From IMG/VR virus record IMGVR_UViG_3300023178_000038: a stretch of 64,000 nt of DNA, one strand, 5' to 3'. The stretch is from an uncultured virus (IMG/VR IMGVR_UViG_3300023178_000038). Taxonomy: Duplodnaviria; Heunggongvirae; Uroviricota; Caudoviricetes. Below the pieces are notes generated by a model that saw only the letters and a program-made list of their open reading frames with translations, was not told the DNA's origin and made no database searches. Positions 46-36,010 of the stretch are shown here, in pieces. The translations under genes were made by a program, and so were the position numbers. Numbering within the stretch: the stretch's first letter is position 1; each line of letters opens with the position of its first letter.

Positions 46-61
46 TTAATAATTAGTAGGA

Positions 62-1108: not shown

Positions 1109-1136
1109 GTTTAAATGTGCCTTTCTCTCTTACGAG

Positions 1137-14316: not shown

Positions 14317-14319
14317 GTG

Positions 14320-18667: not shown

Positions 18668-18689
18668 ATCTATATGGTATAGTGTAGCA

Positions 18690-18910
18690 TACAGGAACAA
18701 GCATTGTGGTATTCCTGCCTATACAAGTACCACAAGTTCAGGATCTCGTTTAGAAGGTTGGATTAGCAGGACCGCCTTAGTCGTGGGTTGAGCCACATTC
18801 CTCACATTTTATTTATTAGAGAGAGAGCAAAAACGTTACTACACTTAATAAACTGGTTTGGGTTGGGAGTGACACAGGGTTAGCTACACCTACAACGACT
18901 ACTCGACTGT
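18690..18910 (+). ncRNA. Conserved structured RNA with covarying hairpin and probable pseudoknot
   Basis: Stem 18704-13/18726-35 with compensatory and wobble changes vs 63598-607/63620-29; loop CCTGC complementary to GCAGG 18766-70; upstream TGnTATAGT. Confidence 0.65.
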
Positions 18911-18934
18911 AAGATTACAGATATTAGTGCGACT

Positions 18935-18982
18935 GCACTATATCTTGTAATATACCACATATAGTACCACTATATATAGTAT
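18935..18982. promoter_or_regulatory. Three NrdR-box-like palindromes overlapping a TATACT -10 (18980-85)
   Basis: GCACTATATCTTGTAA, ATACCACATATAGTAC, CCACTATATATAGTAT vs consensus acaCwAtATaTwGtgt; outer boxes 32 bp apart. Confidence 0.6.
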
Positions 18983-18991
18983 ACTGTCTAC

Positions 18992-19072
18992 GGGGGTGTT
19001 TTAGATCGCAGTTAGATGTTTGTTCCAACCTTAACTAACTCAACGCAGGTGCAAATCCTGCCACCTCCACAA
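18992..19072 (+). ncRNA. Minimal tmRNA-like / tRNA(Ala)-like RNA without mRNA-like domain, copy A
   Basis: GGGGGTG/CACCTCC acceptor stem with G3-U70 and A73; T-arm GCAGG-TGCAAAT-CCTGC; helix AGTTAG/CTAACT; no D-stem; -10 box 6 nt upstream. Confidence 0.8.
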
Positions 19073-19301
19073 ATTACCACATAAACATTGACGTATTCAT
19101 ATACATTTCCGCACGGCTTCGGTTAAGGTATGGGGGTTATATATATGCGTGTGTTATGCGTGTGCGGTTGTATGTTGTGCTATGCGCGTGTTCGTCTACG
19201 TTGTGCGCGCGTCTGTGTTGTTATGCGTTCGCAAGTCTAACCGCATACTATTTTTTAAAAAACTAACGGGGATCCATACAAAACGAAATACGATTTTACA
19301 T

Positions 19302-19329
19302 AAAGAAAAAGCGGGCTACTTGTCCCGCT
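19302..19329 (-). terminator. Intrinsic terminator ending the early-gene block
   Basis: AGCGGG/CCCGCT stem then TTTTCTTT on - strand. Confidence 0.8.
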
Positions 19330-19353
19330 CTCTCTCTGTTGTTGTGTTACTGG

Positions 19354-19545
19354 TTAGCCGTAGTGTTCTTGATAATAATTTAATTCTATTGCTTGATTAT
19401 CAATAATACTCTCTAACTCTAATTTGGTTCGCTCTAGTGTTTTTTCTAATTCTCTAATGCGTTTTTTTAATGCGTAACTATCCGCCATTAGTCCCGATAG
19501 ATACCACGCAAAAGCAATTAAAAACAATAATATAATTACATTCAT
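19354..19545 (-). CDS. Small membrane-anchored coiled-coil protein
   Basis: N-terminal hydrophobic helix; TAATG coupling. Confidence 0.6.
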   Translation of the reverse strand: MNVIILLFLIAFAWYLSGLMADSYALKKRIRELEKTLERTKLELESIIDNQAIELNYYQEHYG

Positions 19546-19874
19546 TATTTATACATATCCATTCCCCAGTCAATCTGGCGCTCTTTGTCATATTCGCTAT
19601 AAGTCTCATAACCGTTATAGCCGTAACTCTTACGTTTAATATATTTATTCTTTAAACCTTCTATAAACCATTTAGGTTTGATATATAAATATAATTTAAG
19701 TTTAAAAAATATAAATTTAGGTAATAAATAAATAAAAATAGCTAAACCAAACAAGCGCCATTTATATTTAAAATGCTTCAACCGATTAAAAAACCTTAGC
19801 AATTTATTAAACTTTGTCCAATTAAGTCCAAAGTAGTCAAGCATATAACTATTACAATTATCTATTAATTTCAT
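19545..19874 (-). CDS. Hypothetical protein (start MKLIDN)
   Basis: GGGAAGG RBS before the internal ATG of the 19545-19931 ORF. Confidence 0.55.
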   Translation of the reverse strand: MKLIDNCNSYMLDYFGLNWTKFNKLLRFFNRLKHFKYKWRLFGLAIFIYLLPKFIFFKLKLYLYIKPKWFIEGLKNKYIKRKSYGYNGYETYSEYDKERQIDWGMDMYK

Positions 19875-19954
19875 TGTATTTCCTTCCCGTATACATAAGC
19901 TAATTATATAACCATGATCCGTATAAAACAAGTATCGATTTTAGATATATATAG

Positions 19955-19994
19955 CAAAAACCCGCTAAGACTATCGGGCGGATACCTAGCGGGC
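19955..19994 (-). terminator. Probable intrinsic terminator
   Basis: CCCGCTA/TAGCGGG stem followed by TTTTT on - strand. Confidence 0.55.
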
Positions 19995-20049
19995 TTATTG
20001 CTTGTGCGCTATTTACATACGTATAAGGGCTACAATGAAGCGCACATAA

Positions 20050-20508
20050 TTATAAATGGCTATGTCTAATCATATACCCCGCGCGGTCAATGTCACTCTC
20101 TAAGCCACGAAATAAAATTATCCCCAACGTATAAACCATGTGGAAAACCATATCCATTCCAGTTCCATGCACGCGTAAAATATTCCTTCCATACTTGTCT
20201 TGCTTCGGCTCTCTCTCATCTATAACCCAACTCATTAAATAAGTAATGTCTAAAATTTCGCTTCCGCTAGCCATGTGAAAACTAATTTGTCTATTCATTC
20301 CGTTAGGGCTTACCCGTCTAACTAAGCCGTGTATTACTGGCTTAGTGTCTGGCGCTTCCCAATTACTTTCTTTTACATGTTCCGCCAGTTTTATGCCGTT
20401 CCAGTCTTTGTAATCATCTGTATACACTTTAAAATTAGTATCAAATATTATATTAAATAATTGCACTTTACTTAATTCGTGTTGTTGTTCTTTAGTTAAT
20501 GTTTTCAC
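20050..20508 (-). CDS. Conserved phage hypothetical protein
   Basis: 152 aa; VRRVS.NGM.R.ISF...V.G.GMDM.FH.VY motif that I associate with phage early proteins. Confidence 0.7.
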   Translation of the reverse strand: MKTLTKEQQHELSKVQLFNIIFDTNFKVYTDDYKDWNGIKLAEHVKESNWEAPDTKPVIHGLVRRVSPNGMNRQISFHMASGSEILDITYLMSWVIDEREPKQDKYGRNILRVHGTGMDMVFHMVYTLGIILFRGLESDIDRAGYMIRHSHL

Positions 20509-20690
20509 GCTATCCCCTTTAAATGTTTTTTAAATTGTCTTTTAGCTTCTTGTATTCCATAACCGATATAAACTTGCTTGTTTGCAAAGTCATTCGCGTC
20601 ATGTAATATTAAAGCGCCATTAATTTTATTTTTATATACTGTTATTTCATTAGTGCTAGATTTTTCTAGCCGTTCTGGATATTCCCACAT
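20505..20690 (-). CDS. Hypothetical protein
   Basis: GGGAAGGTGATAAC RBS before ATG 20690. Confidence 0.55.
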   Translation of the reverse strand: MWEYPERLEKSSTNEITVYKNKINGALILHDANDFANKQVYIGYGIQEAKRQFKKHLKGIA

Positions 20691-20920
20691 AGTTATCACC
20701 TTCCCGTAATAAATTAATTACTTAATTATTATTTATAATCTTTTATTTGTCAAGGATATACAAAACCCCGTAATAAATAAAACCAGTAACAACAAATATA
20801 AAACCTATAACCCCGTAAAGCATAATTAAAGTTTTCATTTTCTTTTATATTTGTTATACATATTTAATTTAAAAATTCTAAAAGGTAATTTATATTTCCA
20901 TATTAAAAATTTAATTCTAT

Positions 20921-21217
20921 TCATAATGATCCTTTAGTGCGTAATTTCGGTTTTAGTCTAGCCCATACCGACTTTAGCTTGCTCTTGTTTTGTGTTTCAA
21001 TATATATCTTTGCCCAACTAAGTCCCGCTACATATCCCGCGTCATAGGATAAGTTGCAGTCCAGTGCTTCCCATTCTCCAACTGCTTCTAATACTTCGTC
21101 CGCAGTATCAAATTTCTCACCGTCAAACTCATAATCATAATGTCCGTCTTTGTTTTCACTATCAACACGTTCTTTTACACTAGCTATATCTTTATCAATT
21201 ACTTTTAGTATGTCCAT
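20921..21217 (-). CDS. Hypothetical protein
   Basis: 98 aa, GGAAGGA RBS. Confidence 0.6.
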   Translation of the reverse strand: MDILKVIDKDIASVKERVDSENKDGHYDYEFDGEKFDTADEVLEAVGEWEALDCNLSYDAGYVAGLSWAKIYIETQNKSKLKSVWARLKPKLRTKGSL

Positions 21218-21560
21218 ATCTATCCTTCCACAATTACTTCTACAACGCCATCAACAATCGATACTTGCTTGCGGTTATTAACAATATCAACAAATATATA
21301 ATTTATTTTTAGTATATGTAACAAATCATCAACAATATTACTTTTATCTATTACTACTTGTTCACCCAAATTATATAAAATCATAATTGCTCTACTTCTA
21401 TATCAATAGTCTCTCCACCAATCATAGAAAACTCACTAGGATTATTGGCTATATAGTTTTCTGCTTGTTCTTTATTCTTGGCTTTTACTTTATATACTTC
21501 TGTGCATGTTCTTTGCACAATATATTCTTTATCCATATCTATCCTTCCACAATTATTTCT
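21213..21560. repeat. 29 nt direct repeat at two gene junctions (21213-21241, 21532-21560)
   Basis: TCCATATCTATCCTTCCACAATTA identical, then (C/T)TTCT. Confidence 0.85.
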
Positions 21561-21835
21561 TTACCTTCATGTGATACTTCTGTCACATAAAAACAAAATC
21601 TGTCTACTAAACCTATTCCACTTGTCATGTATGGTTTATCGTCATCATCATAACGTTCTGTCCATACTGTATTTGGTTTAGCATGCTTCATCATTAAGTC
21701 ATAGTCATCTTTGACTGTATCGAACCATGTATATATTGGCTCACTATCACGATATAGTTGCCGTCCTTCTCCCGCTTCTTTTATAACACGTGGCTTATAT
21801 TTTTTCTCCCACTGGTCATAAGTAATAACTTCCAT
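21539..21835 (-). CDS. Hypothetical protein
   Basis: W..KYKP...NTVWT...SG..LVDR..FYVTE; AAGGAG RBS. Confidence 0.65.
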   Translation of the reverse strand: MEVITYDQWEKKYKPRVIKEAGEGRQLYRDSEPIYTWFDTVKDDYDLMMKHAKPNTVWTERYDDDDKPYMTSGIGLVDRFCFYVTEVSHEGKEIIVEG

Positions 21836-22064
21836 TAACAATCTCCTTCTCTACAACTGTTGCAAACTAATTCGCTTCCGCAACAATCACAATACGCGTC
21901 TTGACACTCACACATTGCTCTCAACATTGTGTAGCGGGCAATAACAACCATCAAAAATAGTTCCTTCTTGACAAACAATATCGCTATCGTATGTAATTGG
22001 ATACTCATTCTCCATTAAGAATGTCATACAACGTAACGTAAAGTCATGTATGTATTGTAATAAT

Positions 22065-22298
22065 TTATTTTTCACGCTTCTCCTTCCGTAAGTTATAGTT
22101 AATATCCATAACTATATCTAATTGTGATTTTATATGTTCTTTTTCTAATTGTAAAGCACTAAACTTATGTTCGTCTATGCTTCTGTTTTTGTATTCACTA
22201 AACATGTATCCAGTTCCAATACCAAAACAATATACTGTTATCCCCGTTAATAAGTCCATATCAATGTCCGCTACAACATGGCTTACAAAACTCAACAA
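22065..22298 (-). CDS. Small membrane protein (start uncertain)
   Basis: Hydrophobic segment then coiled coil. Confidence 0.5.
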   Translation of the reverse strand: MLSFVSHVVADIDMDLLTGITVYCFGIGTGYMFSEYKNRSIDEHKFSALQLEKEHIKSQLDIVMDINYNLRKEKREK

Positions 22299-22409
22299 CG
22301 TGTTGTTGCTCTAAGTCTTTACCACAATTCATACAAAACCACATATCAGTTTCGTCATTGTATTTAGCATGCTTCCCGCACTTATAACATTCTGTTAATG
22401 TATCGTCCA

Positions 22410-22694
22410 TTATTTTTTTCTCCATGCAAAGATACTGTGCTTACTCATGTAATACATACCTTCATATTTATTTTTTTGATACTTACGCAAATTCATAATT
22501 AAATTTGTGTAATTAGAATACTTATCTTTCCATTCTTGATAAGGCGTTAATCCGTTAGGCATTTTTATTTTAAATATAGTATCTTGCGTCCAACCATTAG
22601 CCAGTGCGCGTTCAACTATACTTTTTATATCTTGTTGCAATTCATCTGTTGTCTCTAAATATGCAATAATATCTTTTAATTCTTTTACCTTCAT
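22410..22694 (-). CDS. Hypothetical protein
   Basis: 94 aa, tightly packed after upstream gene. Confidence 0.6.
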   Translation of the reverse strand: MKVKELKDIIAYLETTDELQQDIKSIVERALANGWTQDTIFKIKMPNGLTPYQEWKDKYSNYTNLIMNLRKYQKNKYEGMYYMSKHSIFAWRKK

Positions 22695-22697
22695 GAT

Positions 22698-23528
22698 CTA
22701 ACTTAAAACTGCTTCGGCTTTAGTTCTATACTTATCTAAAGTTTTCTCATCATCACTGTTCTGAACACGTTGCATGACAATAGCTTCTTTGTTTTTTACG
22801 TTATCATCAGCACTAGAATGCTTCCATAAATAAAAACAATTCTTTACATAACGCATACTGGTATTTCCTTTATCGTTATTGATGTTCATTATCTTTGTAG
22901 CTTGTGTCAATATATCTGTGTTAATACCAAAAACGTCTGGTGTCATATTAAGATACTCTGTTCCACTCAACTTACATCTATCAGCTAAGTCTTTAATAAA
23001 AGTATCCATGACATTGTCAATAGCTTCTATCATGCGAACGTCTTGACGTTGTGTTCGTGGCGGTAACTTAAATAAGTTTAAGTATTCATCATCACTAAAC
23101 TCAAAATCAAAATATAAATTATCCATAGTTTTGTATTCAGTATTCTCTAACTCTCTCACTACATTTACTTCTGCACTCTCCAGAATTAACTTACATGTAT
23201 CATCTACTGTAGTTTTCTTATGCTTTAGTATCTGTCTTGTTGTGTGTAGTAAGTGCTTCGGGCTTACTGCTACGCAATAAATATTCTCATCATCTCTTAC
23301 TGCGTCATCAACAATAAACTTTGGATAGTAATTCTTACCAAACTCTACAATGTTTAACACGTATGAGTTAGTAACTTCTATCCAGAATATTTGTCTTGTC
23401 ATATCCCATTTAAACGCCATTGCAAACTCATCTCTTGTGTGGCTATCTGTTTTCTTTACTATTCCTATGGTTGCTAACTCACGTAAAACTTTTACGTCAT
23501 TGTAATCCATTTTTATTTCTATTTTCAT
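22698..23528 (-). CDS. Hypothetical protein, possibly a distant beta-clamp-like fold
   Basis: 276 aa; EVTNSYVL recalls the ATDSYRL clamp motif; weak. Confidence 0.4.
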   Translation of the reverse strand: MKIEIKMDYNDVKVLRELATIGIVKKTDSHTRDEFAMAFKWDMTRQIFWIEVTNSYVLNIVEFGKNYYPKFIVDDAVRDDENIYCVAVSPKHLLHTTRQILKHKKTTVDDTCKLILESAEVNVVRELENTEYKTMDNLYFDFEFSDDEYLNLFKLPPRTQRQDVRMIEAIDNVMDTFIKDLADRCKLSGTEYLNMTPDVFGINTDILTQATKIMNINNDKGNTSMRYVKNCFYLWKHSSADDNVKNKEAIVMQRVQNSDDEKTLDKYRTKAEAVLS

Positions 23529-24124
23529 TTAGTTATCTCCTTCTTATTTTTTAATGTATCAATAAGCCATTTAGCTTCTGGCTTATCTAATTTACTTTTA
23601 CATATTGTTTCAGTATGTCCGTCAAAAACAAACAACGGATCATGCTTTAAATTATGTTCGACTACAAAATTTTTTATTAGCCGTTCATAATTAACAACAT
23701 TGTAAAAACTATCTGTAATTGTATATAAAATATTTAATTTAACTCTACTGTGTTCTTGAAATCTACCTAACTCTCTTGACGTTCTACCAAACTTATAAAA
23801 GTAATCGTTCTCTGCAAAGTAAAATTCTTGTGTTTTGTTTTTGTGTTTTGTTTTGAGTTTCGTTCTACGTGTTTTATACATGCTATCCAAATAACATTGA
23901 CGACTGCAATATTTACTCTTACTTGCTCTTAAAATAAATTTAGAGTTACAAAAACCACAACGCACGGTATCTCCAATATGACGTGTAGTTTTTTGGTGCG
24001 TTCTTTTTTTGAAGTATCTTTGGTTACACTTGTTACTACAATAACGTAATGTTCTACCATGTTTCCTAAACTTATGTATATTAAGAATGTTGTAACACTT
24101 GTGATTTTCACAACGTAAATTCAT
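23525..24124 (-). CDS. Zn-finger + GIY-YIG (T5orf172-like) putative endonuclease
   Basis: Two CxxC...YCSxxC repeats; FYF...YKFGRT...RF..H...E..I...DGHTE. Confidence 0.65.
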   Translation of the reverse strand: MNLRCENHKCYNILNIHKFRKHGRTLRYCSNKCNQRYFKKRTHQKTTRHIGDTVRCGFCNSKFILRASKSKYCSRQCYLDSMYKTRRTKLKTKHKNKTQEFYFAENDYFYKFGRTSRELGRFQEHSRVKLNILYTITDSFYNVVNYERLIKNFVVEHNLKHDPLFVFDGHTETICKSKLDKPEAKWLIDTLKNKKEITK

Positions 24125-24369
24125 GTATCTCCTTCCACAAAGATGTAGTGCTTGCTAACTATTAAGAATTGGATACACTCCTACTTTATGTAGTGGCGGT
24201 TATGTATTATATTCTTAAATTTCAAACCGCTACCCGCAATAGTTAGCTTACACTTGTAACACATAATTAACGTGGTCTGCATATAGTTGTTTCGTGTCTA
24301 GGTGGTAATGAACCACCAACCATTATTATGTGTTAATTAATTTATAATCGAAGTTTTATTTTATGTCAA
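24125..24369 (-). promoter_or_regulatory. sigma70/SigA promoter plus ~210 nt multi-helix leader RNA
   Basis: TTGACA-17-TATAAA (24369-24341); 11 bp helix 24257-67/24325-35; 10 bp helix 24154-63/24238-47. Confidence 0.65.
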
Positions 24370-24578
24370 TCTTTTAAAATATTTTTTTTCCAACGGTTGT
24401 GTCTAACTATTTCTTTACGTGCGTCATCACGCTCACACGGTAGTCCGTCAATGTGGTGCATGTATTTTTCTTTGCATACTAAACATGGCTCATGTCTGTT
24501 AAATTCATACTCAACTTTAGCCATGAGACTAGCTAGATTAAGTGCTACTTGCCGTCCAACTGTATCTATATCTGTCAT
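24366..24578 (-). CDS. Small Zn-binding hypothetical protein
   Basis: CLVC...HH...C; ATGA overlap. Confidence 0.55.
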   Translation of the reverse strand: MTDIDTVGRQVALNLASLMAKVEYEFNRHEPCLVCKEKYMHHIDGLPCERDDARKEIVRHNRWKKNILKD

Positions 24579-24952
24579 GGTAATTGTTTCCAGAATGGAT
24601 CATCAAAGAATGAATTTCCGATTTTAGTTTCAACTATTTCTATAAAAGTATCAAGTGTTAAGCATACAATAATCGGCACTCCGTCTGGTTGTCTGCGTTG
24701 TCCAGATGTTTTAACTAACCGCTTCCAAACTAACGCTGTAAAGTTCGACTTTGACTTCTTGATTGCCTTAGCTAACTCACGTGTAACGTTGAGACTTTGT
24801 CTAGCTTTACACTCTACAAAAAAATCATTACCGTTCCATGTAAATTTAACATCACCTTTATCGTTCATACCACCTTCCGCAATTCTCTCACCGTCTAACA
24901 TCTTTGCTACGAAGGTTTCGAGTTTAGTTCCCTGTTGTTTTTGTTTACTCAC
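24575..24952 (-). CDS. Holliday junction resolvase-like PD-(D/E)xK nuclease
   Basis: KQQGTKLE...DKGDV...VECKA motif. Confidence 0.8.
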   Translation of the reverse strand: MSKQKQQGTKLETFVAKMLDGERIAEGGMNDKGDVKFTWNGNDFFVECKARQSLNVTRELAKAIKKSKSNFTALVWKRLVKTSGQRRQPDGVPIIVCLTLDTFIEIVETKIGNSFFDDPFWKQLP

Positions 24953-25389
24953 TATTCTTCTTTCTTAAATAGTTTTCTCTCCTTTAATGCTTTCGGTGAA
25001 TTTAGTACCTTAGATAATGAAGTTAAGTATTCGTGCATGTCAGCACGATAAAATCTACCATAGTCTAATTGCACACCCCGTTGAACATACTGATAAGAAA
25101 ACAAATCGTTCATGTCTAGTAAGACACTAAGATACCCAACGCCTTTTGCCGTAACTATTTCGACTTTAACTCCGCCATAGTGTGGGCAATCTTTTGTTGG
25201 AAAGTGTGGTTCTAGTTTATATAATTGTTGATACAAACTATTGTCTTCGACAGTATCGTTAGGAAAAAATCCTACTCGATCACTCTCTTCTATCTCTTCA
25301 CAATATGTTATTGCTTCAAGAAAACCATCACATGTATCCATTAAATCCCAAGAAGCTATACCGCCTTTGGTTTTTAATATGTCTTTCAT
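24952..25389 (-). CDS. Hypothetical protein (start MKDILK)
   Basis: Within ORF 24952-25419; ATG just after the upstream stop. Confidence 0.55.
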   Translation of the reverse strand: MKDILKTKGGIASWDLMDTCDGFLEAITYCEEIEESDRVGFFPNDTVEDNSLYQQLYKLEPHFPTKDCPHYGGVKVEIVTAKGVGYLSVLLDMNDLFSYQYVQRGVQLDYGRFYRADMHEYLTSLSKVLNSPKALKERKLFKKEE

Positions 25390-25390
25390 A

Positions 25391-25654
25391 CTACAACTGT
25401 AGCTGAATTTGATCGTCAAGTCTATTTAATAACTCTTGTTTTTTATCCTGATCATTCAATCTATACATGCTGACACTACCTCTGTGTGTGTGCATAGTAC
25501 ATTTTTCACCTAGTATATAATCTTGTCCGTGATCTTGTCGTATCTCTGATATTCTATTTCGTGCAGACCAACCGAACTCTATAAGCTCTGTAGCACAATG
25601 CCACTTCTTATCATCTAATAGCTGTAGGATCTCGTCTCTCATACTCATAGTCAT
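25391..25654 (-). CDS. Winged-helix DNA-binding protein
   Basis: ILQLL...ELI...RISEIR...Y.L pattern. Confidence 0.55.
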   Translation of the reverse strand: MTMSMRDEILQLLDDKKWHCATELIEFGWSARNRISEIRQDHGQDYILGEKCTMHTHRGSVSMYRLNDQDKKQELLNRLDDQIQLQL

Positions 25655-25949
25655 CTCCTTCTACTTCATACCATTCGTATTTTAATGTTAATTCACTGCC
25701 CATAGGTATGTCAACGATCGTATATAAATAATATTTTCTATGATCCAATATTTTTTTTAAGTTAGGTGTGTCACTATGATTTACAAAACCACCTAACGGT
25801 GTGCGTATTGTATCTAACGTAGGTGTGTCTATGATATGTGACATTCCTAAGTTTACACCTTTATCTATATCTACTAATGTAAACAAACCTAAGCCATCTA
25901 TCTTGCTAGGTTGTATTGTAAGATACTCTGGTAGTGGCTTGTAAGTCAC
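25611..25949 (-). CDS. SET-domain protein
   Basis: SKIDGLGLF, GFVNHSDTPN, ELTLKY. Confidence 0.85.
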   Translation of the reverse strand: MTYKPLPEYLTIQPSKIDGLGLFTLVDIDKGVNLGMSHIIDTPTLDTIRTPLGGFVNHSDTPNLKKILDHRKYYLYTIVDIPMGSELTLKYEWYEVEGDDYEYERRDPTAIR

Positions 25950-26212
25950 TTACTCAAATTAAAATCTTCATCTGGATCTAAATGTTTATTAATCATTACA
26001 CCCATAACCATGTTCTTAAACTCTTCTGATCCAACCTTAACACCAGGTCCATCAAACGGATTTATCGGATCATTTTTTTTAATCTTCGTCATACCAGTTC
26101 TCGTCCTCCCTGATCTCTTCTGTCACTTGTAAATCAATATGTGTAGGTTTTTCTACGATCTCTACGTCTTGAAACACACCACCAGTATCAAGTATTATTT
26201 TTATATGTATCA

Positions 26213-26971: not shown

Positions 26972-27216
26972 TAGTCGTTCTCCTCCTCCATCATGTCTTG
27001 GTCTTTATCTATATGATATTCTACCCATACTTTTGTTTTTTTACCAACACTATATTGTTTTAGTAAATCTGTAATACTTTGTTCCATGTGATTAAAAATC
27101 AAATCAAACACTTCTTCTGCTTCTTTTATATTGCTAGCAGTCATTATATAATCACGTGTACTGTTGTCAGTAAACATAACTTTTACATCTCTATCCATTG
27201 GATCAGGTGCGCTCAT
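26971..27216 (-). CDS. Hypothetical protein
   Basis: 81 aa, coupled start/stop. Confidence 0.6.
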   Translation of the reverse strand: MSAPDPMDRDVKVMFTDNSTRDYIMTASNIKEAEEVFDLIFNHMEQSITDLLKQYSVGKKTKVWVEYHIDKDQDMMEEEND

Positions 27217-27422
27217 TCTTGTTCTTCCTTACTTGCTAGTTCTATTGCTGTCATCATCATTTCATTGTAGTTTTCTACAAATTGTTTTGTTAAACTTTCT
27301 ATTTTTTTTGCGTTAGGTTTGTTAAGTTTAATAGAAGTCTGTGACACTTCTTGACCACCGCATGCGTTAGCCATAGCTATCGCCCACTTCTTTAAATCCT
27401 TTTGACTTGTAAATATATTCAT
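27213..27422 (-). CDS. Hypothetical protein
   Basis: 69 aa, coupled. Confidence 0.6.
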   Translation of the reverse strand: MNIFTSQKDLKKWAIAMANACGGQEVSQTSIKLNKPNAKKIESLTKQFVENYNEMMMTAIELASKEEQE

Positions 27423-27425
27423 GGC

Positions 27426-27662
27426 TTAGTCGCCACCACGTTCTGAACGTACAAATACGTAGTGGATAACATTATTCCAATTCTCAAAGTGATGAATGTA
27501 TAGTCCGTGTCTGTGTAACCAATCACGTAACTCACCTGTGCTATCTATGTACTTAGGACTATGTTTATGTATAACAATAAATCCTCTACCAGTTTCACCA
27601 ACTGATTGTACAAGTTCAGACAACATAAAGTTATCATCAAACGTAGTATTAATTGCAGTCAT
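27426..27662 (-). CDS. Hypothetical protein, first gene of the early/middle operon
   Basis: GGAGG RBS, TATACT -10 upstream. Confidence 0.6.
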   Translation of the reverse strand: MTAINTTFDDNFMLSELVQSVGETGRGFIVIHKHSPKYIDSTGELRDWLHRHGLYIHHFENWNNVIHYVFVRSERGGD

Positions 27663-27718
27663 TACTACCTCCCACTATAAGTGTAGTATAAAAAACCATA
27701 ATATCCAAGAATTTTACG

Positions 27719-27803
27719 AAAAACACCAGATCGAAGTTAATTGACCTGGTGTCAAGGATAAGAGTAAAGGAGGAAACCTCTTATCAATGAAATGAGTGTT
27801 GAC
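27719..27803 (-). ncRNA. Candidate sRNA with anti-SD loop GUUUCCUCCUUUA
   Basis: TGgTATAAT (27816-27808); 8 bp stem GATAAGAG/CTCTTATC; terminator ACACCAG/CTGGTGT + U-run. Confidence 0.55.
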
Positions 27804-27832
27804 ATTAATTATACCACATGGTATTGTGGTGA

Positions 27833-27905
27833 GATCAGATAACATCTAAACGTGTTATCTCCTTCCCAAGCAATAAGGCGGTCCTGTGAGACCGCCTTGC
27901 TTTTT
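27833..27905 (+). ncRNA. Candidate sRNA with GUUAUCUCCUUCCC seed complementary to early-gene RBSs
   Basis: TTGACA-17-TATTGT (27799-27827); stem AGATAACA/TGTTATCT; terminator AAGGCGGTC/GACCGCCTT + TTTTT. Confidence 0.65.
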
Positions 27906-27926
27906 ATGTACCTTGCCATGTATAAC

Positions 27927-29147
27927 TCATACGATCTCTTTGTTGTTGTGTCCGTTACTATCAACAACCATAGTCATTACACCTTGTTTGGTTTTCTTAC
28001 CTGCTTGATGTTCAAACCATGTACTCTCATCTAAGCTAGGTACTTGTATCCATGTGCGTCCGTCATGTAATTCACGGTGATGATGATAATGACCTGTGAC
28101 AAGAATGTCACTGGATCCTGCATGGAAGCCACCAAATGTTTGGTTCTTCCACCAGTTCATAAGTTTATTTTCAACTGTGCCACTGTAACCTGCAAGATGT
28201 CCATGAGTAAAACTCATGTTTGTACCGCATACGTTTAGTGATAGGTGTGGCTCATCTGGTATTACAAACTTTACATGTTTGTACTGTGGTTTATCTGCAA
28301 ATATTTCTGCAATCTGTTCAAACACTTCTATGTCATAGTTGTCCATCTCACCTGTTGGTGCAAGATTCTTTGCAATTCTTTTAGTTCCATGATTACCTGG
28401 TACTGCACCTACTACAACTACATCAAAGTCTCTTGACCATTCAACTAATGCTTTAGCAATAAGTCTTCTAGCTAACTTCATTTGATTACGATAATCAAGT
28501 TCGACTCCGTTCGGTCCCATTGCTTGTGGGTAAAATCCTACGCAGCCCTCGACTATATCACCTAATCCTACAACTGTTAACTGATCTAGCTGCACTCCTG
28601 CTTTACGCAAGAAGTTATAACGATCACGTACTGTATCTATCTTTTCTAAAAATCTATTAACAATAGCTTCAGTACCACCGCCATCACGCTTGCCTAACTG
28701 TAGATCAGATATAGCAACAAAAAAACTAGCTTTAGGTTTTGTTACTTTAGGTTTAGCTTTACGCTTGTAAGTCTGGATCCACTTAGATATACGATCATAA
28801 TCTTCTTTGTCTAGTGCATGTTCTTTGTAAACAATCTGTGCTTTGTATGCCCATGCTTGTTGCACGTCTCCTTTGCCCATATTCATATCCCACGTGCTTA
28901 CACGAATAGTGTCATTTAGAATAGAATACTTATCAGGATCGAATCCCCACGATCTAAGAAGATCATTAAACTCTGGACTAGCATTGTCCATAGCTCTTGT
29001 TGTTATTGTGCCTGTCTTAGTTTTGTAATTAAATTCTACGCCAGGTTCCCAACCATTGGGGTGACTTGGTGTATCTTTAACTTCGTTGTGTGCTACGTCC
29101 TGTTGGGTTGCAGTAAGTTTACTTACCTGCGAGTTGTTTTTTTGCAT
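27927..29147 (-). CDS. Calcineurin-like metallophosphoesterase (Mre11-like)
   Basis: SDLQ, LGD, PGNH, THGH, GHYH motifs. Confidence 0.88.
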   Translation of the reverse strand: MQKNNSQVSKLTATQQDVAHNEVKDTPSHPNGWEPGVEFNYKTKTGTITTRAMDNASPEFNDLLRSWGFDPDKYSILNDTIRVSTWDMNMGKGDVQQAWAYKAQIVYKEHALDKEDYDRISKWIQTYKRKAKPKVTKPKASFFVAISDLQLGKRDGGGTEAIVNRFLEKIDTVRDRYNFLRKAGVQLDQLTVVGLGDIVEGCVGFYPQAMGPNGVELDYRNQMKLARRLIAKALVEWSRDFDVVVVGAVPGNHGTKRIAKNLAPTGEMDNYDIEVFEQIAEIFADKPQYKHVKFVIPDEPHLSLNVCGTNMSFTHGHLAGYSGTVENKLMNWWKNQTFGGFHAGSSDILVTGHYHHHRELHDGRTWIQVPSLDESTWFEHQAGKKTKQGVMTMVVDSNGHNNKEIV

Positions 29148-29310
29148 ACTCTTTTAGTACTACTATCACTGATCCACCACCTGCAATTGCTGCAGCTTGG
29201 ATTGCTGTAATGTCTAAGTCGAGTGCAGGACCTACAAGTAAAGCAGAACCAAATGCTTCAATGAATGTCCATACAACTTTTTCGATAAGTGCTTTGAGTT
29301 CATCACTCAT
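29119..29310 (-). CDS. Holin (r1t-like)
   Basis: EKVVWTFIEAF + two hydrophobic helices, next to putative lysin. Confidence 0.65.
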   Translation of the reverse strand: MSDELKALIEKVVWTFIEAFGSALLVGPALDLDITAIQAAAIAGGGSVIVVLKEYAKKQLAGK

Positions 29311-29322
29311 ATTATCTCCAGT

Positions 29323-29886
29323 CTATATTATTGGTCTTCCCTGTAGTTTAGCGTCAATTCGTGTCACTTTTTCGTGAATAGAATCCAACGTTTTACTATC
29401 GGAACTTTGTTCTGGTGCGGCAGCACCATCTAAATTTATCTTACTTACTTCTAATGTAACTGGTTTACCTTGTAGTAATACTTTTGCAACCTTTGCATAC
29501 ATGTTTTGATACGCTATGCGTGATTGTCCAATCATACCGTCTTTACCTAGATCAAGATCTTGTTGTGTGTTACCTGTCAAAATACAACCTGATGTATGCT
29601 CGTCCGTATTCCCAGAGTGTATAAGTATGTATTGAAATCCAGGAACGTTTTGTAATTCTAACATTCCGTAGTGTGCATTCTTATATCTTGCACTGTATTT
29701 CTGGTGAAATCCACCAACTTTTCTAAACTTTATATCGTATGTACCTTCAGGTATGCAGGTTTCGTGCATTACTTTTACTGCTTGATATTGATCTTCAAGT
29801 GTATAACACTCAAACTTACCGTCAATATACATAAGACCATTAGTAGCGTCTATGCCGAACTGTGTACGAACAACTTGTATTTTCAT
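29323..29886 (-). CDS. DUF5675-like protein, candidate lysis/cell-wall enzyme
   Basis: CYTLED, CIPEGTY, ILIHSGN...TSGCIL.G. Confidence 0.75.
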   Translation of the reverse strand: MKIQVVRTQFGIDATNGLMYIDGKFECYTLEDQYQAVKVMHETCIPEGTYDIKFRKVGGFHQKYSARYKNAHYGMLELQNVPGFQYILIHSGNTDEHTSGCILTGNTQQDLDLGKDGMIGQSRIAYQNMYAKVAKVLLQGKPVTLEVSKINLDGAAAPEQSSDSKTLDSIHEKVTRIDAKLQGRPII

Positions 29887-30006
29887 TATTCTCCCTGTTT
29901 ACTTAACCTTAGTATAGTCTTTGCATTGGGGATTTGTACAGTATAATTTACTGTTTTTGACAAGAAGAGGTTGTCCGCATTTAGGACAAGATACTTTCGT
30001 ATGATC

Positions 30007-30168
30007 CTACCTGCTAGCTGCCCACATGTTGTCCACCATATTAGGATATTTACGACCATTAGCTTTAGCTCTAGCTTTTGCCTTTGCCTTTTGTGAAGGT
30101 GTAAGTTTTTTAGATTTTCCTAGATCTTTGGGACGTGGTTTGTCCCATACTGGTTTACTTTTTGCCAT
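30007..30168 (-). CDS. 53 aa basic hypothetical protein (MAKSKPVWDK...YPNMVDNMWA)
   Basis: Hand-translated; TATAAT 5 nt before ATG (leaderless). Confidence 0.65.
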   Translation of the reverse strand: MAKSKPVWDKPRPKDLGKSKKLTPSQKAKAKARAKANGRKYPNMVDNMWAASR

Positions 30169-30245
30169 ACTATATTATAGCTACTTCATCTTTTTGATTC
30201 TCTTAGAAGAGTATCTTTTTTTCTTACCTTTTTTATCGTATGGCA

Positions 30246-30470
30246 TTATCTGCTCACTTTCTTTTTCGGTTGATCGTCTTTATCTTTACGTAGTCCTATA
30301 GTTAACAACCATAAAACTATACTTATTATTATAGCAACTCCAACTATGTCCTTAGCTGTGCCAGTTAATGTTAGCCATGCTATAAAAAAACCTAGCAAAG
30401 TAAATGTTTGTGCTATTGTCTCTTTGATTATTTCTGATAACCAATTAAAAAATTTCTTTATGTACTTCAT
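30246..30470 (-). CDS. Small two-TM membrane protein
   Basis: TLLGFFIAWLTLTG...; ATGA overlap with 578 aa gene. Confidence 0.65.
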   Translation of the reverse strand: MKYIKKFFNWLSEIIKETIAQTFTLLGFFIAWLTLTGTAKDIVGVAIIISIVLWLLTIGLRKDKDDQPKKKVSR

Positions 30471-32203
30471 ATCCTACGTCTCATTCTAACTGGTACGACT
30501 TGCACACTAGCCACAATTTGCGAAGCTATGATAACTGGTACTACAACTTCTTGTGCTTTTTCTTTTTGATCGTTAGTCATATCGTTACCAATAGCACCTA
30601 GATCTATCTCTTGTATATTTATATCAGTAAATGCACCAATAGGATCTGCAAGGAATTGTTCAGTTTGTATCTCTGTCACAACATCAGCAAGTGTGTAATC
30701 TTCTACATCTTTGTTTTCTACTGCACGTTCTACATATTCTTCAACAGCTTCTGCCACTGCTTCGTCATTTTTTACAGCTTCAGCTATAACCTTTACGTCA
30801 TTCTTATCTTCTAAATTAAGTACAGTTGCAACTACTTCTACTTGCTCTTCAGTTAATTCTTCTGCTTTTTGTATAGATTGTTCTACTACCTGACTTACAA
30901 CTTCAAGTACATCTTCGCTAACTTCTGTAAGATTCTCCACTCCGACATCAGCAACTTCAGTAAGTACTTCGATAACCTGCTCTGTTTCAAGATCTTCTAG
31001 CTCTACTTCTTCAATGTCTTTTACAAGATCTTGTACAGTTTGCTCTTCAAATTTTTCTGGCTCTTCTTCTGGTTCCAGTATGATCTCTTTTGTCTCTTCA
31101 ACTTCTTCCTCCTCTTTTATTTCTTCTTCTTTATTATCCTGGTCTTTGTCATCTTCCTCTTGAATTCCCTCTTCTCTGATGTCGTCATCTCCTGGTATCT
31201 CTTGATCCAACTCATCTTCTATAACTTCCTCTTTAGGTTCATCAAAAAAATCCTCATCTTTATCTTCAACGACCACTTCAGGTACCACAACATCATCATC
31301 AGAAATGACTTCTTCGGTATCTGGTTGTTCTTTTTCATCTTCTTTTATTATAACTTCTTCTTCTTTTTCTTCTACTACTTCTTCTTCTTTAGGTATGTCA
31401 CAATCACCACGTTCTATTTGTGCGTCTGTCATGTAACAACCATACTTATCTTCATTATCTTTACGTTGATTATCACGATCTACAGTTCCATCTTCTACTT
31501 CTGTTTCAGTATATTCTGATGTGCTACCATCTTCGTTCACTACTACATACAACGTAGTAGTTGTTGTAGGTGGCGGAGGAGGAGGCGGAGGTGGTTGTGT
31601 TGTAGTTGTAGTACTGCTAGTAGTTGTAGTTTCTTCCTCTACTACTTCTTCTTGTGCTGCAGATTCTGTTGTTGGAGGTGCAACTGTGGTTGTAGTAGTA
31701 ACTACATAAGGATTACAAGCGTCTGTTCCTGTAGGTGCTGACCAATCTGTTTGGTTAAATTCAAATGGTGGACCTGCATAAATGTTATAAACACTTTCAG
31801 TAGTTAGAGTAGAAACAATATTATCTGTTTCATTATTACTTCTTATTCTAAAATAAAAGTTTTTTCCTGCTAGATCTGCAAAGTAATATTTTAAATCATC
31901 ATTACTAAATGTATAATATTGCCAGGTGTTTGTTTGATGACCAAAAGAAGTTGTTACACAAAAGCTATTTGTTTCAGTTATACCACTACTACCACTAAAA
32001 AATATTGTGTAATTTTCAGGTGGACTATCTTCCCACCCATCAGAACCCAATATACCAATAGTTATAGTTCCTGCGTTATTATCTGTTGTAAGATCTTGAC
32101 CATAAGCAGGTTGCGTAGGTACATGATCTGCAAGTACAGGAAAAGGAATTATTAAGAACGCAACAATACATAAGCGAACAAGTGTATTAAATTTGTGTAG
32201 CAC
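30467..32203 (-). CDS. Exported/membrane protein: signal peptide, beta-sandwich-like domain, Pro/Thr linker, long acidic stalk, C-terminal anchor
   Basis: Composition and hydrophobic termini read directly. Confidence 0.65.
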   Translation of the reverse strand: MLHKFNTLVRLCIVAFLIIPFPVLADHVPTQPAYGQDLTTDNNAGTITIGILGSDGWEDSPPENYTIFFSGSSGITETNSFCVTTSFGHQTNTWQYYTFSNDDLKYYFADLAGKNFYFRIRSNNETDNIVSTLTTESVYNIYAGPPFEFNQTDWSAPTGTDACNPYVVTTTTTVAPPTTESAAQEEVVEEETTTTSSTTTTTQPPPPPPPPPTTTTTLYVVVNEDGSTSEYTETEVEDGTVDRDNQRKDNEDKYGCYMTDAQIERGDCDIPKEEEVVEEKEEEVIIKEDEKEQPDTEEVISDDDVVVPEVVVEDKDEDFFDEPKEEVIEDELDQEIPGDDDIREEGIQEEDDKDQDNKEEEIKEEEEVEETKEIILEPEEEPEKFEEQTVQDLVKDIEEVELEDLETEQVIEVLTEVADVGVENLTEVSEDVLEVVSQVVEQSIQKAEELTEEQVEVVATVLNLEDKNDVKVIAEAVKNDEAVAEAVEEYVERAVENKDVEDYTLADVVTEIQTEQFLADPIGAFTDINIQEIDLGAIGNDMTNDQKEKAQEVVVPVIIASQIVASVQVVPVRMRRRI

Positions 32204-32252
32204 GGAACTTACTTAGTTCCGCAACAACCACCACCGCAGCATGGATCTGCCA

Positions 32253-32525
32253 TTATATTTCTCTCCCATTCATATCATTATGTGTCTTGCTATCTAAAAT
32301 ACCAAATGCTTGATTAACTTCCTCGATTGTAAGTTGCCCATCATTTAGGTATTTCCTTGCTAAGATTTCTAGTACATTAGCTACACCTAATAGCCCTGCA
32401 AGTAATGATGATTGTATAACATCAATACCTATAAGTGATCCTGCACCTATAACACTTAATGCTTGTGCTATAAATACAGCAATCATGCGTTTAGATATAT
32501 TCCAATATAAAGAGTAACCTTGCAT
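32253..32525 (-). CDS. Holin-like membrane protein
   Basis: RMIAVF...GAGSL.G...LAR.YL.DG.LT.EE.N.AF. Confidence 0.6.
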   Translation of the reverse strand: MQGYSLYWNISKRMIAVFIAQALSVIGAGSLIGIDVIQSSLLAGLLGVANVLEILARKYLNDGQLTIEEVNQAFGILDSKTHNDMNGREI

Positions 32526-32528
32526 AGG

Positions 32529-32714
32529 TTACATTATACTATTAAGGAAAGCTGCGCTGCTCGTAATTGCAACAAGCCAACCTAAAATCTCCTGACGTGT
32601 TGGTGATTTATTTATTTTTTCATGAAGTTCGTCAATACGTTTATTAGCAATATCAACTTCTTCTTTAATTAATTGCAAGTATTCCTTAGTAGTGAAGCCG
32701 TTACCGTTAGACAT
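32529..32714 (-). CDS. Small coiled-coil protein with C-terminal TM
   Basis: 61 aa; TAATG coupling. Confidence 0.55.
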   Translation of the reverse strand: MSNGNGFTTKEYLQLIKEEVDIANKRIDELHEKINKSPTRQEILGWLVAITSSAAFLNSIM

Positions 32715-32866
32715 TATGGAAGATCATCTTCTTGGATAGGTGTAATCCAATCCCATTCTTTATCCCAAGATTTACGATTATCCCAATCCCATTGACTTAA
32801 TCTTTTAAGATAAGAAATAATTTCTTTTAAAAAAAAACCTAACAAAAATCCTATGATGTAGTCCAT
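32714..32866 (-). CDS. 50 aa membrane peptide (MDYIIGFLLGFF...)
   Basis: Hand-translated; TGtTATAAT 7 nt before ATG. Confidence 0.55.
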   Translation of the reverse strand: MDYIIGFLLGFFLKEIISYLKRLSQWDWDNRKSWDKEWDWITPIQEDDLP

Positions 32867-32887
32867 AAATATAATTATAACACACGC

Positions 32888-33643
32888 TTACATAGTCGGA
32901 TAATCTTTATAAAATTTAGGTTGTTTTTTATAACCTGTTATAAAGTTTTCATTAATTACAAAGTTCTGTTTTTCTAAATAATTTTCTTCATATTCTTTTT
33001 TAGTACCTTTGCGAACCTTTAATTTGATATCTTCTTTTTTAAATACATGTACATAAACTAATGGTGTACCTGCTTCTATAGTGCAATTATAATTTTCAAT
33101 AGAAAATGGAAATGCAACATATCCCCACTTATCTGCTTCTACTACACCAGTAAGCATTCTTATATCATTTCTAAAATGGTAAAATGGATCTTGATACATA
33201 ACACTATAACCATCAGGTACTAATATTTTGTAAGGCATACCTAATTTTAATATAGTTCCTTGTGGTGTCATACCTATAGGCATATCACCTACTTGATGTT
33301 CTACATGTGCGCCTAATAATTTTTCTTTATGGTAAGTATCAGAAGTAAATGCTGCATAAGTATGATCTTTGCCATCTACTTTTTCTGTTCCTATATACAT
33401 TTTTCCCCATAAAGGTAATACAATACCTTCACCAAAATAATCTTGTATAGCGGGACATGTTTTAGCTGTAATAAATTTATCACCTGAAGGAATGTTTAAA
33501 TGAGCGTCTTTCCAACTATCTCTGTAACTACCAGGTTTTAATTGTTTCCACCAATCAGGTAATATATCTTTAGCTTTTACTGGCGGATATAACTTTAATA
33601 GATCTTCAAACTCTTTACTCTTTGGTATAATCGTAACTTTCAC
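32888..33643 (-). CDS. Conserved phage protein (DUF6065/dUTPase-fold-like)
   Basis: PDWWK...TAKTCPAI...PDGYS...GVVEAD...IEAGTPL. Confidence 0.55.
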   Translation of the reverse strand: MKVTIIPKSKEFEDLLKLYPPVKAKDILPDWWKQLKPGSYRDSWKDAHLNIPSGDKFITAKTCPAIQDYFGEGIVLPLWGKMYIGTEKVDGKDHTYAAFTSDTYHKEKLLGAHVEHQVGDMPIGMTPQGTILKLGMPYKILVPDGYSVMYQDPFYHFRNDIRMLTGVVEADKWGYVAFPFSIENYNCTIEAGTPLVYVHVFKKEDIKLKVRKGTKKEYEENYLEKQNFVINENFITGYKKQPKFYKDYPTM

Positions 33644-34331
33644 TTTTACTGTAACCTCCTTTAAACCTACTCAATGTTACTAAATCTATTTTTTTAACAA
33701 ACCTTCTAATTTTTTCGTCCATGTATTTAAAAGTATATTTATATTTTTCTTTTCTATAAGGAACTAAATAACATATAGGTTCCCCTTTTCTAATTAACAA
33801 TTCTTCTTTATCAGTCGTCACTAATATTTGTACATTTAATTGTGTCATTTTATCTTGTTCTATTACACCATAAGTAGCAAACCAATCACTGTTAAAATGT
33901 AAATTTAAAGGTATATATCTTAGTGCATATCCTTTAGGTAATATACAATGAAATCTAGTCGCTAATCTAAATACAGCTTTAATTGGTTTTCCTGGTATAT
34001 GATTTACAAACTGATCATCTTCGTGATGATTTAAACCAACTTTAGGATTAGATGTTCTACCTTGCCATTTACCATTCATATTAAATAAATGTATGTCACA
34101 AGGTGCAACAGCTACGTATGTATCTTCGTGAAATATATTTGCAAAAGAAGGACACATTTTAGTAGTTCTCCAGTTAGGAACTAATTTACTTTTAAACCAT
34201 GTATGATTTTGCGGCATATCTACTGGCATATCTTTATACCACTTTGGAATAAAATTTTTAGTAGGTTGCGGATTAATTTCTTTTGTATCTATAAATTCAT
34301 CAAAATCTGAAGTAAATATAATTTCAGGCAT
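33615..34331 (-). CDS. Paralogue of 32888-33643
   Basis: PKWYK...TTKMCPSF...PKGY...GVIEQD...IRKGEPI. Confidence 0.55.
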   Translation of the reverse strand: MPEIIFTSDFDEFIDTKEINPQPTKNFIPKWYKDMPVDMPQNHTWFKSKLVPNWRTTKMCPSFANIFHEDTYVAVAPCDIHLFNMNGKWQGRTSNPKVGLNHHEDDQFVNHIPGKPIKAVFRLATRFHCILPKGYALRYIPLNLHFNSDWFATYGVIEQDKMTQLNVQILVTTDKEELLIRKGEPICYLVPYRKEKYKYTFKYMDEKIRRFVKKIDLVTLSRFKGGYSKSESYDYTKE

Positions 34332-34345
34332 GTATTAATTATATA

Positions 34346-34585
34346 CTAAGCTGCGTTCAAAGAAAAGAAATGTTTTGTTTTTCCGTTTACAAATATTGTA
34401 GTGTTTGGTCCAGTAACTGTATCATCTATAATAAATAAAGAGTTAGCATAAAATAACATATCAAATAAAGATAGACCTGATCCGCCACTAGCTTCAGGTA
34501 ATAAATTTATATCTTCACTTATTGGTCCACCAATGCTATCTATTAATAATGAACCACCTTCTTTAAGCATGATTAACATTGACAT
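34346..34585 (-). CDS. Hypothetical protein (leaderless)
   Basis: TGtTATAAT 6 nt before ATG. Confidence 0.55.
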   Translation of the reverse strand: MSMLIMLKEGGSLLIDSIGGPISEDINLLPEASGGSGLSLFDMLFYANSLFIIDDTVTGPNTTIFVNGKTKHFFSLNAA

Positions 34586-34614
34586 AGAATTATTATAACA
34601 TGTAGAATATTGGT
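34579..34614. promoter_or_regulatory. Back-to-back leaderless promoters
   Basis: - strand TATAAT 34597-92, 6 nt to ATG 34585; + strand TTGACA-18-TAGAAT, 6 nt to ATG 34615. Confidence 0.7.
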
Positions 34615-35706: not shown

Positions 35707-35994
35707 AACTCTGCCATCTTCTTCATAAGTATTTTGCCATAAAGTTCCATCTTCAATATTAAACCAACGAGGATTTCCTTGACTATCTTCTCCTGGTGAA
35801 GTAAATGATTGGTCATCAGAATTATATTTACTACCTACTTCACTAACAGTAGCGTGTTCAGGTGCTTCTATATGATTAGATAAATCAGAAAATAAATTTT
35901 CAGTGCCATCTTCGTTTACGCTTATTACATTACTTTTAACTGTTTTATACCCTACAACTATGTTTGCTGTTGATAACTCTATAAAATTGTGCAT
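35680..35994 (-). CDS. Tail-fibre-associated small protein
   Basis: VG..Y.....SF..P pattern; follows tail paralogue array. Confidence 0.5.
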   Translation of the reverse strand: MHNFIELSTANIVVGYKTVKSNVISVNEDGTENLFSDLSNHIEAPEHATVSEVGSKYNSDDQSFTSPGEDSQGNPRWFNIEDGTLWQNTYEEDGRVSVPEQVVE

Positions 35995-36010
35995 ATTTTA
36001 TTATACCTTT

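Follow-up and report, generated by a model that had tools for sequence, protein, structure and literature searches.

Comparative analysis predicts a tRNA-like-domain-only RNA with a co-evolving partner RNA beside the terminase gene of uncultured tailed phages

The sequence analysed here, a 64,000-nt stretch of DNA from an uncultured virus of the Caudoviricetes (IMG/VR record IMGVR_UViG_3300023178_000038; hereafter the window), carries beside the start of a terminase gene two predicted small RNA genes: one for an RNA that has only the tRNA-like domain (TLD) of transfer-messenger RNA (tmRNA), and, upstream of it, one for a pseudoknotted RNA that we term the partner. Both a tmRNA-like domain and a pseudoknotted RNA had been pointed out in an original prediction for positions 18,690-34,614, and comparison with relatives confirmed the two of them. 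Two related tailed phages, here called phage A and phage B, are joined end to end in the window (positions 1-19,108 and 41,662-63,994 match piecewise, ~70-92%), and each has a copy of the pair. Relatives were sampled through 125 matches to the conserved segment of the partner, of which 117 had both ends and gave 41 distinct sequences and 24 representatives, the main clade; the eight matches left out were six on contigs ending too early and two from record L069, in which the TLD has no 3' end. Two further clades, C and D, have terminases 68-73% identical.

The TLD-only RNA lies at 18,992-19,071 (+) in phage A and at 63,879-63,957 (+) in phage B. By comparison, it is predicted to form a 7-bp acceptor stem with A73, a T arm, a D-loop that has no stem, and a short helix 2a that ends in an open loop, which contains the segment that docks to the partner (19,016-19,026 and 63,902-63,911). 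Of 27 distinct sequences, 25, including the two copies in the window, have the acceptor pair G3.U70, and the other two (L573 and L576) have G3-C70 in its place; the T stem is paired throughout (100%). The D-loop and T-loop change jointly in 27/27, with GG accompanying U55 in 15 and AG accompanying G55 in 12, a covariation that indicates a folded tRNA elbow. This D-/T-loop contact is required for SmpB binding (PMC3968760). The CCA end is mostly unencoded, and a -10 hexamer at 18,980-18,985 (+), of the form TAnnnT with variants, stands 6-7 nt 5' of the first G of the RNA in the 24 relatives and in clades C and D.

Standard tools largely pass this gene by. The phage B copy scores 44.7 bits against Rfam RF00023, below the gathering score of 47 bits, the phage A copy goes unreported at E up to 1, and an ARAGORN run for tmRNA and tRNA genes returned 0 genes. 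The layout is not that of a one-piece tmRNA, given that 34 nt stand in place of 301 model positions between the TLD halves and contain neither a tag frame nor pseudoknots. Nor is it permuted: both halves occur in standard order on one 79-109-nt unit, and an Rfam search of the window gave no match to the permuted tmRNA families. In L069 the TLD gene upstream of the terminase has lost its 3' acceptor strand, which makes it either a pseudogene or an assembly error. Separately, the TLD gene is followed at 19,072-19,150 by a conserved stretch that ends in a G run and then by TG-rich DNA of variable sequence; this may be a signal for packaging or for the genome end.

The partner RNA, whose ends are predicted, occupies about 18,690-18,910 (+) in phage A and 63,585-63,805 (+) in phage B. 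From 5' to 3' it comprises a docking strand (18,694-18,705; 63,589-63,599 in phage B), pseudoknot 1 (stem 18,705-18,713/18,726-18,734, with loop 18,714-18,718 pairing with 18,766-18,770), a site resembling the resume site of tmRNA (18,779-18,791), a hairpin (18,783-18,796), an invariant U/A-rich stretch, and a probable pseudoknot 2 (18,834-18,840/18,868-18,874, with loop 18,862-18,867 pairing with 18,902-18,907), all on the plus strand. Both sides change in 7 of 9 pairs of the first stem and in 3 of 4 hairpin pairs. The loop pairing of pseudoknot 1 is invariant within the main clade, whereas its stem covaries; the closing helix of the probable second pseudoknot is compensated between the main clade and clade D, and its tail forms 6/6 pairs in 22 of 26 sequences by a best-site search run without a shuffle control. 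Folding of single sequences gave z-scores of +1.0 for the partner and -0.4 for the capsid-operon leader described below; because this method ignores pseudoknots, support for both folds comes solely from comparison. In clade D (L637-L641) the partner carries insertions of about 110 and about 160 nt, and the partner of L013 has a 19-nt hairpin-like insertion directly 5' of the resume-like site.

The resume-like site begins 12 nt past pseudoknot 1, a spacing kept in 23/24 sequences of the main clade and 3/3 of clade D, with A at -4 in all 27 where the site could be located; its first codon would be at 18,783 and its stop would be codon 3. Neither candidate tag frame of the partner is conserved: the codon-3 stop of the first is gone in 4/24, and the second, a tag reading G/A-L-G-W-E-stop, is present in 24/24 sequences of the main clade but lost in clade D. 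We rejected the latter as a tag, the structure of the segment accounting for it.

Each RNA appears to have its own promoter. An extended -10 site (TGn-TATAGT, 18,675-18,683, +) precedes the partner and overlaps the divergent -10 site of the terminase (18,681-18,686, -); the "n" is the sole variable position on either strand among the 24 relatives, and the pattern is kept in clades C and D. Together with the -10 site of the TLD gene, this pattern of conservation fits that of promoters. In clade C the terminase start beside these overlapping divergent sites (18,675-18,686) is exactly leaderless. Contigs from RNA libraries (X1-X4; four runs, four studies) that match positions 44,001-64,000 cover the terminase and portal genes, and the bin with both RNAs has a depth of 1.1-3.6, no higher than its neighbours; such contigs carry no strand, ends or level and may stem from DNA, and are thus neutral on expression.

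The open loop of the TLD-only RNA is complementary to the 5' part of the partner over 9-12 bp in every lineage group. In an alignment of the pair, 93.8% of cells pair, as against 39-47% in slid controls. Changes on both sides are seen for 18 of the 46 pairs, 4 of the 10 docking pairs among them; three sequences with apparent gaps in the pairing of some docking columns do pair once the register is shifted. Automatic alignments were out of register at part of helix 2a (69.4% paired) and at helix 1 of the capsid-operon leader (42.5%). Clades C and D keep the layout, and their docking sequences differ while pairing persists through two helices each. L590 docks at another site of the partner than its sister group. 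In a permutation test of 33 loci in 9 groups, the cognate assignment was the best of 362,880, and in 8 of 9 lineages none of 97-192 other 60-nt windows within 3 kb paired as well. Extending the docking to the D-loop gave p 0.04 on related sequences and nothing in clade D, and was dropped as unsupported. Comparison of the relatives shows both predicted folds, the predicted tRNA elbow and the helix between the two RNAs, and we consider it highly probable that the cognate pairing exists.

TLD-like genes also occur elsewhere. By a strict pattern, viral contigs hold at least 120 TLD-like stretches, and 52 distinct genes outside the family were found among the 80 matches listed; among these listed matches, helix 2 of TLD-only genes is mostly closed by a short hairpin, and a partner-like match is present in at most 2 of the 52 (tRNA controls, 0/7). 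A pattern scan of metagenomes was too degenerate to be used, and its 80 listed matches, from mixed sources, were taken as chance. The 27 stretches from bacterial genomes reduced to 25 distinct genes other than tRNAs, of which nine have a complementary partner pairing over 13-19 bp (shuffles, 0/40). A sigma-70-like promoter precedes these bacterial partners, a clear terminator-like hairpin closes most of them, and they also cover the D-loop, as an antidote would. They are placed downstream in tandem, upstream and divergent, or convergent, and the neighbouring genes, judged by their protein starts, resemble prfA, topA, dprA and rplL. Seven of the nine partner-bearing records are named as lineages of the Patescibacteria group; the records with a TLD-like gene of ~70 nt and a partner are L760, L761, L767, L768, L769, L774, L780, L782, L786 and L808, and the nine of them that were tested all have full tmRNA and SmpB as well.

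A model built from 15 of the bacterial TLD-like genes found one new genome among 151, and the partner predicted there was present (-40.9 kcal/mol); the same model also scores both window copies. We rejected the idea that the bacterial pair replaces tmRNA, full tmRNA and SmpB being present in 12/12 genomes tested, as well as the idea that the TLD-like gene is a core gene of that phylum, since 2/151 genomes contained it at E up to 1e-9, where only 32 candidates per genome were scored. The TCGA word of the D-loop, part of the Rfam consensus, is absent from the TLDs that have partners and kept by about half of the viral TLDs that lack them. We take this word to be an SmpB contact, a point on which the passages searched yielded nothing.

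Several known systems resemble this pair in part. Mycobacteriophage DS6A carries a TLD-only tmRNA gene without coding sequence (PMC4131195, PMC11915505), which, like the genes described here, is a phage gene with the TLD alone, G3.U70 in the acceptor stem, a stemless D-loop, a T arm and no internal tag frame, and a molecule similar to its product inhibits tmRNA whether or not it can be charged (PMC4131195). Here, unlike in DS6A, for which the available portions describe no partner, an open loop terminates helix 2a and co-evolves with a separately promoted RNA. The two-piece permuted tmRNAs of alpha- and betaproteobacteria, cyanobacteria and phage Melnitz (PMC3985003, PMC11915505, PMC9004378) likewise consist of two base-paired RNAs, one with two pseudoknots and a middle region. 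However, the forms described derive from one permuted precursor and build the TLD from both pieces, whereas in the phage pair both TLD strands are predicted on one RNA, two promoter-like sites are present and no tag is conserved. The type VIII toxin-antitoxin system SdsR/RyeA (PMC8610362) shares with it the masking of a small RNA effector by antisense pairing with a second small RNA. In that system the two genes lie on opposite strands and overlap, and mRNAs are the pairing targets of the toxin, while the phage genes are separate and the putative effector is a tRNA mimic; by sequence, the phage pair consists, as type VIII systems do, of two small RNAs with cognate antisense pairing.

The curated tmRNA database distinguishes five forms, none of them with two genes (Table 3 of PMC11915505, in the portion available), and in the literature covered (titles and abstract openings, with few subscription papers) we found no TLD-only RNA with a separately encoded partner. 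What appears to be new is therefore not the TLD-only RNA, which is of a known kind, but its predicted co-evolving and separately promoted partner. TLD-only phage RNAs have so far been read as lone decoys, and the co-evolving partner suggests that some are regulated or completed in trans. That bacteria equipped with tmRNA and SmpB show the same layout suggests that the class is wider and mostly missed by ARAGORN and by Rfam cut-offs.

As to function, we infer the expression, charging, target and purpose of the pair from sequence. The reading we consider best, with a probability of about 0.4, is that the TLD-only RNA would act as an alanine-accepting mimic of tmRNA, gated by its cognate partner. 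The two genes would form a module at the end of the genome that holds the terminase. The TLD gene would give an ~80-nt mimic of the tRNA-like domain of tmRNA, which would be processed and alanylated by host enzymes and serve as the effector; the upstream gene would give, from its own promoter, a pseudoknotted RNA of ~200 nt, the 5' part of which would pair with the open loop of the mimic. By occupying parts of the host tmRNA pathway, namely alanyl-tRNA synthetase, EF-Tu and possibly SmpB, the mimic may reduce tagging and degradation during infection, and pairing with the partner, as cognate controller, would set the amount of free mimic. We rank this reading first on four grounds, with which it agrees: the precedent of DS6A, the occurrence of two G3-C70 variants, the lack of a tag and bacterial partners that look like antidotes; the G3-C70 pair in 2/27 is tolerable because a DS6A-like molecule inhibits tmRNA chargeable or not.

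Several observations weigh against it. An antidote role would leave about 180 more conserved nucleotides of the partner, with two pseudoknots, unexplained, and the phage partner covers just the loop and the end of helix 2a, so that it may not inactivate the mimic. The TCGA word is found in 0/27 TLDs of the family as against 27/52 of the other viral TLD-only genes, and one record, L069, lacks the 3' acceptor strand of the mimic. The cognate nature of the pairing also has its weak points: in clade D, 10 of 175 windows score equal to the cognate one, close groups tie, and the groups of the permutation test were set from the docking sequence itself and are related by descent.

The strongest competitor, which we regard as possible but less probable, is a tmRNA assembled in trans from two genes, with the intact TLD as one RNA and the partner, docked where helix 2a ends, as an mRNA-like domain. 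Ribosomes that have stalled would take alanine from the TLD, switch to the partner 12 nt past pseudoknot 1 and stop after two codons, so that their proteins would be released without a degradation tag. This arrangement accounts better than a gated mimic for the size and layout of the partner, whose docking strand, pseudoknot, middle region and probable second pseudoknot resemble the coding piece of two-piece tmRNA (PMC3985003), and whose 12-nt spacing (23/24 and 3/3) and A at -4 (27/27) are as in E. coli (PMC2481249). The resume codon has been modelled near the 2a/2b loop (PMC1168896), two-residue tags are known (PMC11915505), and docking leaves the elbow intact. However, neither reading frame is kept, the codon-3 stop being gone in 4/24 and the alternative G/A-L-G-W-E-stop frame (24/24 in the main clade) in clade D; the first base is other than G in 2/24 of the main clade and 3/3 of clade D, and the first codon sits in the covarying hairpin. 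In addition, G3-C70 occurs in 2/27 and the TCGA word is missing, the clade C partner is laid out differently, and the bacterial partners look by eye too short for a stop-ended frame. If this reading held, and we put it forward tentatively, the pair would be a gene form of tmRNA, the fourth, with an intact TLD and a separately transcribed mRNA-like domain assembling in trans for tag-free ribosome rescue in phage, at the elaborate end of an unrecognised class of TLD RNAs with cognate partners that is also found in small bacterial genomes. Whether the partner gates a mimic or completes a tmRNA, the pair would offer a small test system, either for a tmRNA mRNA domain supplied by a separate gene or for a tRNA-mimic RNA toxin with an RNA antidote.

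A function unrelated to ribosome rescue seems unlikely: the TLD might signal processing of the partner or stabilise it, or the two RNAs might take part in DNA packaging next to the terminase start or serve as bait for host defences directed at tRNAs. The position beside the terminase start, fixed in all three clades, the missing TCGA word and the tolerance of G3-C70 in one lineage would agree with such roles, but the mimic is preceded by a -10 site of its own, 25/27 sequences retain G3.U70, and the bacterial pairs adjoin housekeeping genes, with no terminase in the flanks read.

The original prediction went further and placed these RNAs in a single RNA programme, in which two anti-Shine-Dalgarno (anti-SD) small RNAs, a pseudoknotted RNA matching the capsid leader, structured leaders and many leaderless starts would act jointly with the TLD in place of protein regulators. 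Several conserved, covarying RNAs do point at translation (the tRNA-like domain, the anti-SD loops and the pseudoknotted capsid leader), and the TLD pair, both anti-SD RNAs and the capsid leader co-occur in the main clade and in clade D. Their unity is unsupported, and we think a joint programme improbable. The TLD:partner helix is, by sequence comparison, the only predicted physical link between the listed RNAs that has covariation support; a 13-nt match between the partner and the second small RNA is confined to phage A and unconserved. Furthermore, most starts are SD-led, the window joins two phages rather than being the one genome assumed, and the parts are patchily distributed, patchiness being what the prediction had named as telling against it. 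The complete record G003 has the TLD pair and no detectable anti-SD loop motif, and four sister-clade loci have, by eye, a long capsid leader and a CU-rich small RNA. A model of the TLD-only RNA found no match in 56 sister-clade loci, 7 other loci and 5 sister records (4 at least 90% complete), with 4/4 positive controls recovered. Taken across the relatives, these RNAs look to be a family repertoire, not one fixed unit, and the anti-SD RNAs, the capsid leader and the leaderless starts would be separate devices outside the two-gene module.

The leader of the scaffold/capsid operon, at 1,584-1,790 (-) in phage A and 43,249-43,455 (-) in phage B and thus outside 18,690-34,614, has two covarying pseudoknot helices (2/5 and 4/5 pairs changed on both sides). 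Of all the leaders it is the best supported; it is ~200 nt long, its second pseudoknot ends directly 5' of the SD, it has no Rfam match, and a similar-looking leader is found in four sister-clade loci. The partner had been said to match this leader and does so over a 10-nt core; it is nevertheless very unlikely that the partner is a guide bridging the TLD-only RNA to the leader and controlling capsid translation, since the G-rich partner segment that pairs with it at ~-28 kcal/mol in phage A, phage B and L014, as the best non-self sites on mRNA strands, scores equally at unrelated sites on the other strand (-28.7, -28.4) and forms its own helix, compensated between clades, while in L035 and L049 the leader has changed with an unchanged partner, the duplex dropping to -17.8 and -19.8, and changes in the leader are compensated within the leader. 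L067 was left out of this comparison because its sequence had been extracted wrongly.

The two anti-SD candidates stood up well. Small RNA 1 (about 27,715-27,812, -; z -4.8) is predicted to form a covarying stem that presents a 13-nt anti-SD loop of invariant sequence (27,765-27,777), and then a terminator-like hairpin. Small RNA 2, divergent from it (about 27,826-27,905, +; z -5.2), combines a CU-rich segment with anti-SD character (27,859-27,866) with a hairpin that likewise resembles a terminator. Among 20 representatives of 69 exonuclease loci, 15 keep the loop of small RNA 1 in its position, 3 have it inverted and 2 have it displaced; across 15 sequences, two-sided changes affect 7 of its 8 stem pairs. 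Neither small RNA has an Rfam match at E up to 1. CU-rich anti-SD loops are known from the asd motif, 6C RNA and RNAIII, which the phage small RNAs resemble in having an SD-complementary loop on a hairpin before a terminator. On the plus strand (27,765-27,797), the complement of the loop of small RNA 1 is a strong SD, followed 13 nt later in several relatives by a mini-frame of a start, one codon and a stop; G-U pairs favour the minus-strand RNA, and this is probably incidental.

As for the leaders, stretches at 24,125-24,365 (-; z -3.4) and 19,932-20,049 (z -4.5) fold well and may be the two long structured leaders originally listed, the intended pair not being identifiable; the first is intergenic and patchy, matching 11 compared loci at 50% cover or more, and the second matches only 3. 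Leaderless starts exceed background (7 of 59 author-chosen starts against 14 of 924 other ATGs) without being many, as 30 of the 59 are SD-led, 16 coupled and 6 other, and none of the 25 early genes is leaderless. All seven (30,168, 32,525, 32,866, 34,331, 34,585, 35,994 and 36,247) lie on the minus strand of phage B, within 30,168-36,247. Such starts are common in actinobacteria. An anti-SD RNA that would spare leaderless phage mRNAs fails as an explanation because most phage genes use SD starts.

The one small winged helix-turn-helix (HTH) protein that had been listed is also present as an HTH_39-like open reading frame (ORF) at 25,391-25,648 (-), which has no Pfam match and an ESM Atlas score of 0.91 to viral clusters with PF14090 in 23-50% of their members, a lead only. 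That the genome is poor in protein regulators could not be upheld: because few early ORFs have any family (Pfam match in 2 and PHROG match in 6 of 19), missing regulators cannot be inferred. Lytic phages of 40-45 kb with neither repressor nor sigma factor are unremarkable.

The join of the two phages is a 113-bp stretch (28,264-28,376, no strand) that is exact in both, and is probably a misassembly through this common sequence. Record L070 is identical to 6,754-28,376 and terminates exactly there, whereas L085, L087 and L088 are identical to the window from 28,264 up and have a different sequence below it. Gene sets are doubled in the window, with two terminases and two SU10-type capsid genes, and positions 18,690-34,614 span both phages: phage A contributes the RNA genes and early genes, and phage B the lysis and auxiliary genes and all leaderless starts. 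Of 40 terminase matches, 29 are to Streptomyces phages, and actinophages make up most of the 821 exonuclease matches. From this we infer that the host is probably an actinobacterium, the best identities being just 25-30%; a search for terminase relatives in genome contigs found none, so that a direct host link was not obtained.

Other features of the two phages may be noted. A SET-domain protein, missing here in several relatives, is encoded at 25,611-25,949 (-; Pfam 32 bits against a cut-off of 22.4). A low-GC block at 32,888-35,706, complete in only 2 compared loci, holds a tryptophan-halogenase-like gene on the opposite strand and two phrog_7084 paralogues. Direct repeats lie over the ribosome-binding sites of small adjacent genes, of 29 nt at 21,213-21,241 and 21,532-21,560 and of 23 nt at 36,511-36,533 and 36,855-36,877. 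Finally, at the N-terminus of the terminase (63,256-63,561, -) a cluster of cysteines accompanies a weak HTH match (E 0.03-0.09), perhaps reflecting a fused small-subunit function.

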